From: an uncultured Candidatus Saccharibacteria bacterium
GTDB taxonomy: Bacteria; Patescibacteriota; Saccharimonadia; CAILAD01; JADZBC01
Assembly: GCA_964600985.1 (NCBI GenBank)
Contig: CAZRJR010000001.1
Location: 399,431-463,430, forward strand
Reading direction: 5' to 3'
DNA: 64,000 nucleotides
This document shows, in pieces, positions 22,453 through 51,161 of this stretch. Positions within the stretch are counted from its first letter, which is position 1. Every line of letters begins with the position of its first letter. The notes beneath the pieces are model-generated. The model did not search any database. It was not told the origin of the DNA and saw nothing but the letters and a program-made list of their open reading frames with translations. A program made the position numbers and the translations under genes.

Positions 22453-23823
22453 CTACTCTGTCCTAAGGGCTTCAATTGGATCGAGCTTGGCTGCCTTGCG
22501 TGACGGCAGCCAACCCGCCAGGATCGAAACAATCATAAGTGCGATTATAAGCTGCACTATCTCCACAGGCTTAAATACAAGCAACGAGGTCTTACCTAGT
22601 TCGAGGGATTTAGTGATCCACGGATTCAGCAAGGTGCCTAAGCCAAGTGCTACAAGTGAACCAACCAGACCTCCAATAAACCCAATCCAAGCTGCCTCAA
22701 ACCTAAACAAGCGGCCAATATCGCGCTTGCGCATACCAAGCGCCTTCATGAGTCCAATTTCGCGGGTGCGCTGCAGCACACTAATATACATGGTGTTTAC
22801 GATTCCAAACACTGAGGCAATAATGGCAATTGCCGCAAAAGCCGCCACAATCCCTTGTAAGATATTAATGATGTTTGTTAGGAATTCCTGCGCGTCCTTT
22901 ACACTCTGTACCGCAAAGCCTGATTCCTTAAGCTCATCCTGCACCGCCTTGAGTTTAGCTGGGTCTTCGCCGCCCTCTACCTTAGCAAACACATAGGTGT
23001 ACTTACGATAGTTCGGGCCACCAGCAGTCGTAATGTCATTGAGCGCCCGGGCCTGGTCAACATCGGCATATAAGTACAGCTCCGTACCGGGCTGGGCAGT
23101 AGTTGGCTTTTTGGTAACTGCTGCGATAGTAAAGGTCTTTTCTTGGCTGGTTTGCTCACTCAGCTTGGCGAGGGAGGCCGGATCGGCCGACGAACCAGAA
23201 AGCGTGCTTAAGTTGGTAGCCAGTGATTGGGGGACCGAAAGAATAACAGTCTTACCAATCGCGTCTTGAGCGTTCTTAAATCCAAGCGACTGCACATAGG
23301 CCTCTGGCAAAAGCACTGATTCTGAGCCAATCACTCCGCCAACACCAATCTTGCCGGCTGCAAGTTCGGGCTTCTGAGCTGGGCTGAAAGCAGCTAAAGA
23401 GGCTACGTAGCGCTTTTGTCCTTCACGAGTAATGTAGCGCAGGTTTACCGTTATATCCTCACGCACCGCCACTATACCATCGGTCGCCTTAATCTTCGTA
23501 ATGTCTTCGTCAGAAATTCGTTTAATCTGCGTGGTAGCACCAGAGTTCGAGAACCCCGTACCAAAGCTCGGGTCGTACTCACGCGGCTTAGCATTGCCTC
23601 CCTGGCCTCCAAAGATTGACTTGTCCTTAGCCACTATCAGCTCGGCGGGGTCGAAGTTCTCTGAAATAACTTTATTTACAAAAGCCGTAGCGCCGTTGCT
23701 AGCCGCCAAGGTTAGTGTAAGTGCAAAGGTGCCCACGCCAATCGCTGCAGCAGTCAGAAGCGTGCGAGCTTTAGCGCTCCTGAGGCTCCGTCCGGAACGC
23801 GAGATTTGATCCCACAGCATCAT
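22453..23823 (-). CDS. ABC transporter permease, FtsX/MacB family, with a large extracytoplasmic domain
   Basis: 456 aa. N-terminal TM, a periplasmic domain of about 250 aa, and a C-terminal FtsX 3-TM bundle. Overlaps the ATPase gene by 4 nt. Confidence 0.85.
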   Translation of the reverse strand: MMLWDQISRSGRSLRSAKARTLLTAAAIGVGTFALTLTLAASNGATAFVNKVISENFDPAELIVAKDKSIFGGQGGNAKPREYDPSFGTGFSNSGATTQIKRISDEDITKIKATDGIVAVREDITVNLRYITREGQKRYVASLAAFSPAQKPELAAGKIGVGGVIGSESVLLPEAYVQSLGFKNAQDAIGKTVILSVPQSLATNLSTLSGSSADPASLAKLSEQTSQEKTFTIAAVTKKPTTAQPGTELYLYADVDQARALNDITTAGGPNYRKYTYVFAKVEGGEDPAKLKAVQDELKESGFAVQSVKDAQEFLTNIINILQGIVAAFAAIAIIASVFGIVNTMYISVLQRTREIGLMKALGMRKRDIGRLFRFEAAWIGFIGGLVGSLVALGLGTLLNPWITKSLELGKTSLLVFKPVEIVQLIIALMIVSILAGWLPSRKAAKLDPIEALRTE

Positions 23824-47171: not shown

Positions 47172-50108
47172 TTAGGACTTGCGGAGGCTAATGCGCAACT
47201 CGCTACCTTCTACCTTTGCAGTGGTAGCGATATAGTCATCGGGTAAAGCTTTGGCTTTTACCTGTAAATCCGTAGCCAATACTTCTGCCCGAATGGTGTC
47301 AGCGTGCTCTTTAGCAGCCTGGACAATGTCTTCATCATCAGCACCAAGCACCAGCTCTATACGGTCACTCACTTCCAAATCAGCCTGCTTGCGGGCATTT
47401 TGGACTACGCGGACTATGTCACGCATAATTCCTTCGCGCTTCAGTTCTGGTGTTACTATGGTACTGAGCTCCACTGATTGACCACCAACCACCGCTTTTA
47501 CGTTTACTTCGTCACGAATAATCTCAAGGTAATCTTCACTCAGCTCATCACCATGCGGAACCTTGAGTTCGCTAAGCGGCTGTCGCACCTTTATGTTGGC
47601 TTCGGCCCTAAGTGCTAAGGCTTCTTTTATGCTTTCACGTACCAACGACATTTGCTCGAGTACGCCGTCGTCTACCTTGATAGCCTCTGGCCAGTCACTC
47701 AAATGCACCGAGCTTGGCAGTCTGTCTAGGCCAACTGTTAGCTCGCGCCATACATAGTCACTTACAAACGGTGCCCAAGGTGCTAGTAGCTGACACACGC
47801 GCACTAATGCGTACCACAGCACCTCATAAGCCTGCTGCTTGTCGCTATCGTCGTCACTCTTCCAGAACCGTCTACGTGACCGGCGAATATACCAGTTACT
47901 CATGTCATCCATAAGCGTAAGTATTGGAGCTATAGCATGGGCAATTTGGTAATTATCAGCCTCACGGGTAACCTCGATAATGGTTTCGTCAAGCCGCGCG
48001 AGCATCCAGGCATCGAGCACGTTTGTGCTTGTTGGCCGCTCACCTGGCTTGGCAGGCACAAATGTGTCGAGCTGAGCGTACATACTAAAGAACTTCTGAG
48101 AGTTTAGGAGTGTGGAAAGCACATTACGCTGCATGTCACGCATACTGTCACGGCTAAATCGTAGGTATTCCGCCGTTTCGCTCGCTTGGTGACTCGAGAG
48201 CAAATACAAGCGCAAGCTATCGGCACCCTCTGAGTCGAACACTTCTTCAACCGGCGGGTAGTTCTTGAGTCGCTTGCTTAGCTTTTGGCCATCGGCCGCC
48301 ATAATCATGCCGTTTACGACTACGTTTTTGTACGCTGGCGCATTAAACAGAATGGTATTCATTACATGCTGAACATAGAACCACAGCCGCGTCTGGTCTA
48401 AACCCTCGATAATAAAGTCCGCCGGAAAGCTCCTTTCGAACGCTTCTTTATTCTCAAACGGGTAGTGATGCTGGGCAATACTCATAACACCACTCTCGAA
48501 CCAACAATCCAACACTTCCTCGACCCGCCGATATGTTTTGCCGTCGCGCACAATTTCTACGTTATCAATCAGTGGCCGGTGTACGTCAGTTGTATCCAGA
48601 TCGTTATTACCTGCTAATTCGCGTAGCTGATCGTAGCTCTCCACAACAATGTAGTCATTGCTGTCTTCGGTATTCACCCAGATCGGCAGTGGTGCACCCC
48701 AGTAACGATTACGGCTGATTGCCCAATCCCTCGCACCCTCGAGCCACTTACCAAATCGGCCATTCTTTATATGCGCCGGGGTCCAGTTGATCTGTTCGGC
48801 GGTTTTTAGTAACTGAGGTCGAATCTCAGATACCTTAATAAACCAGCTCGAAATCGCGTAGTACATGAGTGGCGTTTCGCAACGCCAGCAGAAAGGATAG
48901 GTGTGCTCTTTGGTCTCGGCTACATACACCAAGCCCAACTGAGTGAGGTGTTCGATTATAAGCTTGTCAGCACCCTTAAAGAACTTACCGCTTAATGCGT
49001 CAACGCCAGTGTTATTCGTAATCTTACCGCTCGCATCGGCAGTTTGTAGTACCGGAATACCCTCTTGTAAGCCTAAATTAAGATCATCTTCGCCAAAGGC
49101 CGGCGCTACGTGCAACACACCAGTACCATCTTCTATACTCACAAACTCCGCTGGCCATACTTGGTAGAGCTTTTCCCCGCCCTCTACTTTTTCGATGTCG
49201 CTCAAGCTAAATACCGGCTCGTACTTGAGCCCAACTAAATCAGCACCTGCTAACTCCTTAACCACCGTGTAATTATCATGCCCCAGCGCTTCGAGGCGCT
49301 TTTTGGCAAGCACCAACACTTCACCGGCTGGATTATTGTCATAATCAGTGGTCAGTTTGGCATACACATACCTCTCCTGCGGATGCACGGCAATGGCTGC
49401 ATTACCTGGCAAGCTCCAAGGTGTAGTGGTCCAGCCTAACAAATACGCTTCGTCGTCTACAAGCTTAAACTTCACATACAGGCTTGGGTCTGGCACATTG
49501 TCTTTATAGCCATCATTCACTTCAAAGTTCGAAAGTGGTGTTTCGCAGCGCGGGCAGTACGGGGTACTTTTATAACCCTTATATAAGAGGCCTTTTTTGT
49601 GCACCTGGCTCAAAGCCCACCACACACTCTCGGTATAGTTATTATCAACCGTAGCATAGTAGTTATCGTACTCACTCCACCGGCCCAGACGTTTGAGCAA
49701 GTGCTCCCACTCATCTTTATAGGTAAAGATCGAGTCCCGGCAGGCGGCATTAAACTTTCCTAATCCTAGCTCGAGGATTTGCTTTTTACCACTCACTCCA
49801 AACTGCTTCTCGATCGCAAACTCTACGGGCAAACCATGGCAGTCCCAGCCGTTACGGCGTGGTACATAGTAGCCGCGCATAGTTTTATAACGCAGCATGG
49901 AGTCCTTTATGCTCGTAACCAATGAGTGGCCAAAGTGCGGCAGACCATTAGCAAACGGCGGCCCATCGAAGAAGCTATAGGTAGGTTTGCCTTCACGCTG
50001 TTTGATTGATTGCGCAAAGGTGTCTTCCTGTTGCCAAGTAGCTAAAATCTGCTCCTCTATCTGAGCAAATTGCGACTTTTGATTGGCTTGTGGTTTGTTG
50101 TTTGTCAC
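47172..50108 (-). CDS. ileS: isoleucyl-tRNA synthetase
   Basis: 978 aa. HIGH (PFANGLPHFGH) and KMSKS (KLSKRL) motifs, CP1 editing domain. GTG start with AAGGAT 7 nt upstream. Confidence 0.95.
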   Translation of the reverse strand: MTNNKPQANQKSQFAQIEEQILATWQQEDTFAQSIKQREGKPTYSFFDGPPFANGLPHFGHSLVTSIKDSMLRYKTMRGYYVPRRNGWDCHGLPVEFAIEKQFGVSGKKQILELGLGKFNAACRDSIFTYKDEWEHLLKRLGRWSEYDNYYATVDNNYTESVWWALSQVHKKGLLYKGYKSTPYCPRCETPLSNFEVNDGYKDNVPDPSLYVKFKLVDDEAYLLGWTTTPWSLPGNAAIAVHPQERYVYAKLTTDYDNNPAGEVLVLAKKRLEALGHDNYTVVKELAGADLVGLKYEPVFSLSDIEKVEGGEKLYQVWPAEFVSIEDGTGVLHVAPAFGEDDLNLGLQEGIPVLQTADASGKITNNTGVDALSGKFFKGADKLIIEHLTQLGLVYVAETKEHTYPFCWRCETPLMYYAISSWFIKVSEIRPQLLKTAEQINWTPAHIKNGRFGKWLEGARDWAISRNRYWGAPLPIWVNTEDSNDYIVVESYDQLRELAGNNDLDTTDVHRPLIDNVEIVRDGKTYRRVEEVLDCWFESGVMSIAQHHYPFENKEAFERSFPADFIIEGLDQTRLWFYVQHVMNTILFNAPAYKNVVVNGMIMAADGQKLSKRLKNYPPVEEVFDSEGADSLRLYLLSSHQASETAEYLRFSRDSMRDMQRNVLSTLLNSQKFFSMYAQLDTFVPAKPGERPTSTNVLDAWMLARLDETIIEVTREADNYQIAHAIAPILTLMDDMSNWYIRRSRRRFWKSDDDSDKQQAYEVLWYALVRVCQLLAPWAPFVSDYVWRELTVGLDRLPSSVHLSDWPEAIKVDDGVLEQMSLVRESIKEALALRAEANIKVRQPLSELKVPHGDELSEDYLEIIRDEVNVKAVVGGQSVELSTIVTPELKREGIMRDIVRVVQNARKQADLEVSDRIELVLGADDEDIVQAAKEHADTIRAEVLATDLQVKAKALPDDYIATTAKVEGSELRISLRKS

Positions 50109-50340
50109 TGTTTGATCCTTAATCCGTTCCTATATAACACAAATACCTCTTTCGGTTGTTGGAATCCCAGCTTGCGCTAGGACGGTACCATCCAACTTCC
50201 AAAAGAGGCATCTCTTTGGCTCTTAGTTTAGGCTATTACGGGCTCCCCGCCGAGTTCTACTTGGCATTGCGCCGTTCTTCTCGATTGCTTCGTGGTTGAT
50301 AGCCACTCATTTGCCTTGATTTAGACAAAACGCATCTAGC
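50109..50340 (-). promoter_or_regulatory. putative T-box riboswitch leader of ileS (ultrashort stem I type)
   Basis: The minus-strand leader contains AGUUGGAUGGUACCGUCC (plus 50182-50193), which matches the T-box core GGGUGGUACCGCG at 11 of 13 positions. There is a 14/16-bp terminator-type helix, CUCUUUUGGAAGUUGG with CCAACAACCGAAAGAG, followed by UAUUUGUGUU. Upstream is a hairpin GUGG-CUAUCAA-CCAC (plus 50291-50305) whose terminal loop carries the Ile codon AUC plus A. Confidence 0.5.
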
Positions 50341-50342
50341 AC

Positions 50343-50371
50343 AAATATACCACGCAATAGGATATATATCA
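50343..50371 (-). promoter_or_regulatory. ileS promoter (TTGATA-N17-TATATT)
   Basis: Minus strand -35 at 50371-50366 and -10 at 50348-50343. This gives a leader of about 225 nt. Confidence 0.4.
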
Positions 50372-50403: not shown

Positions 50404-50436
50404 AAGGCCCCGACGGAGTCGAAACCTCGCCGGGGA
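50404..50436 (-). terminator. hairpin terminator downstream of the hypothetical gene 50466..51161
   Basis: On the minus strand, CCCCGGCG-AGGUUUCGACUC-CGUCGGGG (an 8-bp stem including one G-U pair) followed by CCUUGCUUUGCAG. It starts 30 nt after the stop codon. Confidence 0.4.
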
Positions 50437-50465
50437 CTGGAACTATTATTGAGTGGCGGGCAGCG

Positions 50466-51161
50466 CTACCGACCCGGCAAAAGCTGTACCCGCCTCATGG
50501 ACACGACGGAAAGCCGGAACCTTCCACATTCTGCCCTACACCATGCTTCTGCCGCACGCCGGTTGAAAGCAAAAACCACAAATGTAATAGCTGCGACTTT
50601 TACTTCGGATTGATTTTGCGGCCTCGACGGGTCAACATTGTGGATCGTGGCAGCATTCTGGAGGTCTGAGAGTGACGGCGGGTACAGCGGGTGACGTACA
50701 CGCACCTCAATGTGATATTCGTTCATCAGCCCCGACCTGGGCAATCTGTCATTCGGGTTAAGGAACTCTACGGTACCCCTATTTGTAGTCAAGCTAATCA
50801 CACCGCCTCTTAGCTGAGGTTCACTCCAGGATATATTAAACCTCCGCAACTTCTCGCCCTTCGGCCAAAACGTCCAGGGTGTTTGGTTACCCCCCTTAAA
50901 AGCCGTCCAGGCGAGCTCGACTACGAGATCCTCCCCGTCAATTGAGAGCTTACTGATCGGACCCCGTACCATCGAGGATGAAGAGGACTTGAACAGGAAG
51001 TCACGACCTGGATATTGCCCTCCTTCGGCCTCAATCCATTGATTCCAGGCAGTGATGTTGGCTTCCTGGTACGCACCTGTACCCATGATGTAGCAACCCT
51101 TCTGTCGCTGTTGGGCCTCCTTGGCCACAATTATTGTCACGCCTATAGTTGTTAATTTCAA
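50466..51161 (-). CDS. hypothetical protein
   Basis: 231-aa ORF. Plausible internal start MGTGAYQEANITAWNQW at 51086. No recognisable family. The 5' end is divergent from and overlaps the pyk upstream region. Confidence 0.4.
   Translation of the reverse strand: MKLTTIGVTIIVAKEAQQRQKGCYIMGTGAYQEANITAWNQWIEAEGGQYPGRDFLFKSSSSSMVRGPISKLSIDGEDLVVELAWTAFKGGNQTPWTFWPKGEKLRRFNISWSEPQLRGGVISLTTNRGTVEFLNPNDRLPRSGLMNEYHIEVRVRHPLYPPSLSDLQNAATIHNVDPSRPQNQSEVKVAAITFVVFAFNRRAAEAWCRAECGRFRLSVVSMRRVQLLPGR

Follow-up and report, generated by a model that had tools for sequence, protein, structure and literature searches.

T-boxes are a model system for the sensing of tRNA charging by RNA. One of their classes, the ultrashort (US) class, consists of translational T-boxes of the gene ileS, which have a short stem I, present the specifier in its terminal loop and lack the platform that binds the tRNA elbow (bioRxiv 10.1101/2023.02.28.530422; PMC7583486; TBDB preprint 10.1101/2020.06.17.157016). 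Examples are the ileS leaders of Mycobacterium smegmatis and M. tuberculosis, attributed to Sherwood, Grundy and Henkin (2015) in bioRxiv 10.1101/2023.02.28.530422 and PMC7583486. Transcriptional T-boxes generally require a long stem I (PMC7583486). Here we describe an element that is located on the minus strand (50334-50134), directly 5' of ileS, in a 64-kb stretch of DNA (the window) from a genome of the Saccharibacteria (TM7; Patescibacteria or candidate phyla radiation, CPR). Judged by its sequence and the covariation of its helices, the leader is a genuine T-box, its decoding module is in the same structural class as the actinobacterial US ileS T-boxes, and its output domain is unlike those of the two known classes. 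A US decoding module is joined here to an enclosing terminator of unusual layout, in a phylum new to the class. We propose, with a probability of roughly 0.7, that it is a tRNA-Ile-responsive riboswitch that controls ileS by transcription attenuation. No paper linking T-boxes with Saccharibacteria, CPR or Patescibacteria was found, in a literature coverage that was incomplete, and an earlier description is possible.

The decoding module of the window leader has the following parts.
50334-50286, minus strand: stem I with its kink-turn-like (K-turn-like) base, closed by the C-stem UGC (50334-32) : GCA (50288-86).
50329-50310, minus strand: hairpin inserted in the K-turn-like bulge, on the 5' side of stem I.
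50309-07 (UGA) and 50291-90 (GA), minus strand: flanks of stem I, with GA dinucleotides on either side of the helix.
50306-03 (GUGG) : 50295-92 (CCAC), minus strand: stem I helix of 4 bp, part of a 15-nt hairpin (50306-50292).
50302-50296, minus strand: 7-nt terminal loop CUAUCAA of stem I, with the specifier AUC at 50300-50298 and the purine A at 50297.
50284-80 (UCGAG) : 50254-50 (CUCGG), minus strand: lower helix of stem II, with changes on both sides in 5/5 pairs.
50279-75 (AAGAA) opposite 50260-55 (GUAGAA), minus strand: S-turn-type internal loop of stem II, invariant or nearly so.
50273-71 (GGC) : 50265-63 (GCC), minus strand: upper hairpin of stem II.
50249-47 (CGG) : 50241-39 (CCG), minus strand: stem IIA, which covaries and has the loop GGAGC.
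50233-31, minus strand: GC(C) in the linker, the IIB partner that forms a pseudoknot with the IIA loop.

A preliminary description of this stretch had proposed an ileS T-box of the US class with a truncated stem I, on the grounds of a hairpin GUGG-CUAUCAA-CCAC that presents AUC-A in its terminal loop between GA-rich flanks. Hairpin, loop and flanks are all present, and the specifier AUC, an Ile codon, suits the regulated gene. The long stem I helix, the internal-loop specifier and the elbow-binding distal platform are all missing from the window leader. The UGA and GA flanks and the covarying C-stem agree with a K-turn motif, but the bulge has 4 nt or bears a hairpin, and UA/AA replaces GA in some leaders. 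The IIB pseudoknot is weak in the window, with 2-3 bp only; in 15 diverged leaders it has 3-5 Watson-Crick pairs, between the 3' end of the IIA loop and a site 3-6 nt past IIA.

A scan of a genome collection with the IleRS protein of the window retrieved 80 loci. In 25 Saccharibacteria ileS loci the core AAnnnGGrUGGnACC lies 66-94 nt before the start codon (194 nt in L037, in which A2 has a large insertion), and all 25, like the window, contain a 4-bp hairpin with the 7-nt loop NNAUCRN. The comparison with related ileS leaders that the preliminary description had suggested thus revealed the same elements in register in 25 other leaders, with the AUC hairpin in 26/26. All 26 leaders share one modular parse. 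It begins with the C-stem, G-UU with or without an inserted hairpin, UGA, stem I, GA and the 3' strand of the C-stem; it continues with the lower helix of stem II, AAGAA, the upper hairpin, GUAGAA, the lower 3' strand, IIA and the linker that pairs in IIB; and it ends with RRRxG, stem III, AA, A1, UGGNACC, A2, A1', a linker of 1-8 nt, X' and a U-tract (the parts of this last section are explained below). AUC and the purine after it are both invariant in 26/26 leaders, and little or no variation is seen in UGG.ACC, AAGAA and UAGA. The helices vary in a compensatory manner: the stem I helix shows UA/CG at 13:12 and GC/AU at 20:5, and the C-stem occurs as UGC/GCA, UCC/GGA, AGC/GCU, GGC/GCC and GAC/GUC. 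Covariation was counted on fixed-register cores of the real sequences and compared with shuffles. For stem I, stem II and IIA together, 98.0% of the cells are paired versus 81.6% after shuffling, and 58 cells show double changes versus 15.8, values that none of 500 shuffles reached. The modules that contact the tRNA thus show strong purifying selection and compensatory changes among genomes with IleRS proteins that are only 52-80% identical.

The Saccharibacteria leaders differ in extra hairpins, which are placed either in the K-turn-like bulge on the 5' side, as in the window (50310-50329), or between stem I and the 3' strand of the C-stem; where they occur, the base of stem I becomes a three-way junction. 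Such hairpins are found in L001-L003, L007, L010, L011, L021, L029, L034 and L037, and in L005, L025, L036 and L040. Three contigs that encode a Saccharibacteria-type IleRS with a T-box bear other record labels, namely Nanoarchaeia archaeon (L028), Binatia bacterium (L031) and Parcubacteria bacterium (L035), and these are probably binning or labelling errors.

The affiliation with the US class was examined with a covariance model, termed R1, which was built from 20 Saccharibacteria decoding modules only. In the window it has a single match, the ileS leader, with 75.4 bits and an E-value of 1e-17, and among the genome loci it matches 27/42 Saccharibacteria ileS loci. For an actinobacterial set, metagenomes were scanned with an IleRS probe of approximate, Mycobacterium-like sequence; this retrieved 80 ileS loci, and the matches are real metagenome contigs with 64-91% identity to the probe. 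US leaders such as GAUCCGGCUAUCACCGGGGAGCC...AAGCGGGGUGGUACCGCGG are carried by 73/80 of these loci, and R1 matches 73/80 loci over its full length with 25-54 bits. By contrast, it matched none of the canonical long-stem-I ileS T-boxes of Chloroflexi and Clostridia, which places the leader in the class that the preliminary description had named. No T-box was detected at the ileS genes of L080 (Actinomycetota) and three Thermoleophilia loci (L081-L083, Actinomycetota), nor in 15/42 Saccharibacteria ileS loci (L009, L012, L013, L015, L016, L018-L020, L026, L027, L030, L033, L038, L039 and L045). The element is common but not universal in both phyla.

The similarity to the actinobacterial US T-boxes comprises the regulated gene, ileS, and the following features of the leader. 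In both groups the terminal loop that presents AUC and a purine caps a stem I of 4-5 bp, which rests on a GA/K-turn-like motif; the distal platform is missing, and stem II has the AAGAA and AGUAGAA S-turn motifs. Both also have a IIA/B element with a short IIB of about 3 bp, the arrangement RRRxG-stem III-AA (for the definition see PMC7583486), and the UGGU bulge that separates A1 from A2. Apart from the host phylum, they differ in the T-box core, which reads GGAUGGUACCGU in Saccharibacteria versus GGGUGGUACCGCG in Actinobacteria, and in the output domain. Actinobacterial US T-boxes are described as translational, with an anti-Shine-Dalgarno sequence in the 3' strand of A1, whereas the Saccharibacteria leaders use the 3' strand of stem III, a downstream repeat of its 5' strand and a U-tract. 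This translational mechanism was taken from the literature and not from our own sequestrator test, a crude one, in which pairing of the A2/A1 3' strand with downstream sequence had a median z of -0.07 in the GC-rich actinobacterial leaders.

The output domain of the window leader is composed as follows.
50224-20, minus strand: purine string RRRxG, here AAGAG; RRRxG is found in 21/26 leaders.
50219-12, minus strand: 5' strand of stem III, termed X (CCAAAGAG), followed by the loop AUGC.
50207-50199, minus strand: 3' strand of stem III, termed Y (CUCUUUUGG), in the ON fold.
50198-97, minus strand: AA of the purine string, found in nearly all of the 26 leaders.
50194-50183, minus strand: T-box core UGGAUGGUACCG.
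50196-91 (GUUGGA) : 50163-58 (UCCAAC), minus strand: antiterminator-type helix A1, with double-sided changes in 5/6 pairs.
50190-84, minus strand: T-box bulge UGGUACC of 7 nt; UGG.ACC is invariant in the 26 leaders.
50183-64, minus strand: helix A2 of 8 bp, closed by G.U and capped by a GCAA tetraloop, with double-sided changes in 4/4 pairs.
50157-56, minus strand: 3' linker AA between A1 and X'.
50155-43, minus strand: X' (CCGAAAGAGGUAU), a near-repeat of X, which pairs with 50211-50199 (Y and the stem III loop).
50213-50143, minus strand: composite long hairpin, the proposed terminator (OFF fold), made of the Y:X' helix, a 2x2 A.A loop, A1, the 7-nt bulge and A2.
50145-50134, minus strand: U-rich tract UAUUUGUGUUAU, directly after the long hairpin.

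The T-box core, the covarying antiterminator and a long helix with a 2x2 mismatch, all of which the preliminary description had reported or looked for, are thus present. It had regarded the long helix as an alternative to the antiterminator, and this part has to be revised, as the helix contains the antiterminator instead: Y:X' extends A1 coaxially and generates one long hairpin that holds the T-box bulge and A2 and leaves the antiterminator intact. Its 21 bp are interrupted only by the 2x2 A.A/A.A internal loop (50198-97, 50157-56). The 86-nt 3' domain has a folding energy of -41.3 kcal/mol compared to -18.8 +/- 3.1 for shuffled sequences (z = -7.2), and the fold of the whole leader has a z of -3.7 against shuffles. 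The helix had also been offered as either a terminator or a sequestrator. The first function is supported by the U-tract at its end, the second is not, since it leaves the Shine-Dalgarno sequence (SD) untouched; the SD lies 23 nt past the long helix and outside of all conserved helices.

The strand Y has two conserved, mutually exclusive partners, X or X', and the Y:X' pairing makes a hairpin that abuts the U-tract. In the window, X and X' read CCAAAGAG and CCGAAAGAGG; X and X' are identical (CUUUUGAG) in L004, L005, L024 and L031, and X' has one or two changes relative to X in L036 and L008. Stem III is present as a hairpin in 19/26 leaders, and in these 19 Y is shared by stem III and Y:X', with X being a near-copy of X'. 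The other seven (L010, L023, L025, L028, L029, L032 and L035) keep the purine string, in which RRRxG is joined to AA by 2-9 nt, and here X' pairs with the RRRxG string itself, e.g., AAGUCCC : GGGACUU in L010 and L032. For Y:X', A1 and A2 together, 99.5% of the cells are paired versus 65.9% in the shuffles, double-change cells number 122 versus 31.8, and the covariation score is 0.98 versus 0.27. In agreement with these counts, and without a preset register, the enclosing hairpin is the single-sequence minimum free energy (MFE) structure in 25/26 leaders. It is followed by a run of 4-7 U in 23/26 leaders, and the 10-nt tail has at least 5 U in 22/26. The two flanks of A1 are complementary with a median z of -4.45, whereas this pairing is missing in the actinobacterial leaders (median z +0.34, with contiguous runs of mostly 2-4 bp at best), in which also the U-runs do not exceed 3 nt.

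The long hairpin together with the U-tract implies transcription attenuation. The location of the SD outside of the conserved helices also fits transcriptional control, as does one leader in which an open reading frame (ORF) lies between the T-box and ileS: in a Saccharimonadales metagenome-assembled genome (MAG; L014), the T-box spans 758 to about 925 and includes the terminator and U-tract, an ORF for 178 aa without a Pfam match follows at 942-1477, and ileS starts at 1480. To judge from this arrangement, the element appears to control a two-gene operon. The average energies are -36.4 kcal/mol for the long hairpin (OFF), -23.7 for stem III with A1/A2 (ON), and -15.2 for A1/A2 alone; the respective values in the window are -43.2, -26.4 and -17.7. 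The order, with OFF below ON, is the usual hierarchy of terminator over antiterminator, and in canonical transcriptional T-boxes the terminator is likewise about 12 kcal/mol below the readthrough fold (TBDB preprint values).

Canonical leaders for comparison were those of Chloroflexi and Clostridia ileS (L049, L057, L062, L064, L065 and L066). They share with the Saccharibacteria leaders the intrinsic terminator and the modules stem II, IIA/B, stem III and T-box bulge, but they have a long stem I with an internal-loop specifier and the elbow-binding platform in place of the ultrashort stem I. A second difference concerns the terminator. In the canonical leaders its 5' strand consists of the 3' strands of A1/A2, which pair with downstream sequence with z values of -2.2 to -6.0 in 5/6 leaders, whereas no such pairing was detected in the Saccharibacteria leaders (median z 0.15), and their terminator leaves A1/A2 intact. 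This suggests a terminator in competition with stem III and the purine latch instead of the A1/A2 3' strands.

Bacterial tRNA-Ile is assumed here to have the anticodon GAU and the discriminator base A73. By default, or when the tRNA is charged, the emerging X' would displace X from Y, the long hairpin would form, and transcription would stop before ileS. Uncharged tRNA-Ile would be recognized by pairing of its anticodon GAU with AUC and of its 3' ACCA with UGGU. Stem III, with the purines that flank it, would then dock on the duplex of tRNA and bulge, as in solved discriminator structures, and this docking would keep Y in stem III and X' unpaired, so that the polymerase would read through. In the leaders without stem III the same logic would apply to the pairing of X' with the RRRxG string. 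According to published work, binding of the tRNA 3' end depends on stem III and the purine string, and stem III is stacked on the antiterminator (PMC7583486; bioRxiv 10.1101/2023.02.28.530422), and it is because of this stacking in published structures that we suppose that uncharged tRNA locks stem III and the latch. The more specific version of this mechanism, i.e., a transcriptional T-box without an elbow-binding platform in which the terminator captures the 3' strand of stem III, or RRRxG, via a downstream repeat and a tertiary latch acts as the switch, is tentative, and we rate its chances at slightly less than even. If true, it would represent a new expression-platform logic for the T-box family and a natural test of whether the purine latch alone can transmit the aminoacylation signal.

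In the two leaders L025 and L164 (the latter actinobacterial), the bulge reads UGGC instead of UGGU, which predicts G73 as the discriminator base of tRNA-Ile in these organisms.

Several observations weigh against the proposed attenuation by a T-box. First, the Rfam T-box model RF00230 had no match in the window, neither at the gathering score (93 bits) nor at E<=10 on 801 nt or E<=1 on 64 kb. The preliminary description had recommended this search and counted a missing match as evidence against a T-box, and in our opinion the conservation and covariation described above override it. RF00230 also had no match in the 25 orthologous Saccharibacteria leaders (gathering and permissive E-value scans of 40 related loci); canonical ileS T-boxes were matched, with 95-107 bits, only in six Chloroflexi/Clostridia loci. 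The actinobacterial leaders have 27-47 bits, under the 93-bit cut-off, and the Saccharibacteria leaders are still further from the Rfam consensus. The negative result is a limit of the Rfam model, not an absence of the element. Second, the Y:X' register was hand-picked for best pairing. With RNAalifold on MAFFT-aligned 3' domains, A1 and A2 were recovered independently but Y:X' was not, because Y and X' lack sequence homology from one lineage to another and the linkers differ in length. Third, one of the 26 leaders, L040 (leader 1276-1480), lacks the enclosing helix. It has its own terminator hairpin abutting A1, (A)CGCCGCAA-AUG-UUGCGGUG(U) followed by U6, which overlaps the last about 2 nt of A1 and resembles a minimal-overlap classical terminator. 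Fourth, the U-tract of the window (UAUUUGUGUU) is weaker than those of most relatives. A terminator scanner gave no match, because its loop limit of 3-8 nt rules out a composite hairpin. Fifth, the T-box bulge is still exposed within the OFF hairpin, and A1/A2 alone is very stable in the window; the tRNA could in principle bind both the ON and the OFF state. Sixth, no tRNA-Ile gene was found in the window or the 42 related loci from which the anticodon and the discriminator base could be read, and the coupling of tRNA binding to the choice between X and X' is an analogy to other T-box structures.

The exposure of the bulge leads to a different coupling within transcriptional control: the bound tRNA might block the closure of Y:X' sterically or kinetically, for example because the tRNA complex takes up space near the RNA exit channel or because the hairpin nucleates more slowly, and stabilization of stem III and the latch would not be involved. 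The accessibility of the bulge inside of the long hairpin, the absence of a stem III hairpin from seven leaders, and the overlap of only about 2 nt between terminator and A1 in L040 are in accord with this mechanism. Nevertheless, we regard it as a serious but rather unlikely alternative. The exact pairing of X' with RRRxG in L010, L028 and L032 points to a competition with the latch, X and X' have been kept as near-repeats competing for Y in 19 leaders, and stem III and the purines are needed for 3'-end binding in published structures (PMC7583486).

Quite improbable is a translational T-box like that of the actinobacterial US class, in which the SD would be hidden by the long helix or by another fold and set free by the tRNA. 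The decoding module does belong to a class that is translational in Actinobacteria (bioRxiv 10.1101/2023.02.28.530422), A1/A2 is intrinsically stable, as has been noted for translational T-boxes (PMC11297988), and a weak pairing joins the SD region to the 5' end in the full-leader MFE structure of the window. However, this pairing was not seen in the other leaders, the SD is no part of the long helix, complementarity of the A2/A1 3' strand to downstream sequence is missing, U-tracts follow directly after the helix in 23/26 leaders and in none of the Actinobacteria, and the ORF of L014 separates the T-box from ileS. The least credible possibility is that the long helix is chiefly a processing or stability element, e.g., an RNase III substrate, or a constitutive attenuator, with the T-box being a relic or acting otherwise: a helix of 21 bp with only a 2x2 loop would suit this, as would the cleavage of a T-box leader by RNase III that is documented in S. 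aureus (PMC7913692), but the compensatory changes and the purifying selection on the tRNA-contacting modules oppose it, and a relic would not keep AUC and UGG.ACC invariant.

Under the proposed transcription attenuation, three generalizations about T-boxes would need amending. First, the US class has been called actinobacterial and translational, and here it is widespread in a CPR lineage, with a terminator attached to it. Second, fast capture of the tRNA by transcriptional T-boxes is said to depend on a long stem I, and the Saccharibacteria leaders have none. Third, the 3' strands of A1/A2 have been seen as what the switch contends for; here A1/A2 would be kept in both states, and the contest would be for stem III and the purine string. 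In addition, as the element is missed by RF00230, riboswitch surveys of CPR genomes undercount T-boxes, which R1 detects. On the proposed model, reduced, host-dependent bacteria would have kept feedback control of an aminoacyl-tRNA synthetase.

An actinobacterial connection of the locus, which had been suggested in the preliminary description, is unsupported by the enzyme. Over its N-terminal 520 aa, the IleRS of the window shares 47% identity with the IleRS of Chloroflexi/Clostridia and 43% with that of Actinobacteria with US T-boxes, and it gives no sign of a recent co-transfer from Actinobacteria. The data are compatible with common ancestry as well as with a convergent loss of the stem I platform or an ancient transfer. 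The closest relatives of the IleRS in the genome-collection scan are those of Saccharibacteria MAGs, with identities of up to 76%.

The surroundings of the element contain the following features.
47172-50108, minus strand: ileS coding sequence, encoding a type-2 IleRS of 978 aa with the domains tRNA-synt_1, Anticodon_1 and, at the C-terminus, DUF5915; GTG start at 50108-06.
50120-16, minus strand: SD AAGGA, 5' of the GTG of ileS.
50372-50344, minus strand: predicted sigma-70-type promoter, with -35 TTGATA (50372-50367), a 17-nt spacer and a TG-extended -10 TATATT (50349-50344).

The predicted promoter has 10/12 consensus matches and is placed just 5' of the first T-box helix. Transcription would start near 50337, and the leader would have about 229 nt. 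ARAGORN found no tRNA or tmRNA gene in the 64-kb window, and none of the Rfam families matches there at its gathering score. At 23304-23384 on the minus strand, the S10-Clostridia ribosomal-protein leader is matched below threshold (27.5 bits versus a cut-off of 35.1, E-value 0.15); this match is most likely due to chance and lies inside of an ORF of 456 aa (22453-23823, minus strand), the product of which resembles an ABC-transporter permease by eye only. Just upstream of the ileS promoter, at 50413-50441 on the minus strand, a GC-rich hairpin (CCCCGGCG...CGUCGGGG) is followed by CCUUGCUUUGC. It is located directly past the stop codon of a minus-strand ORF of 231 aa (50466-51161, TTG start, no Pfam match), and it is probably the terminator of this upstream gene.

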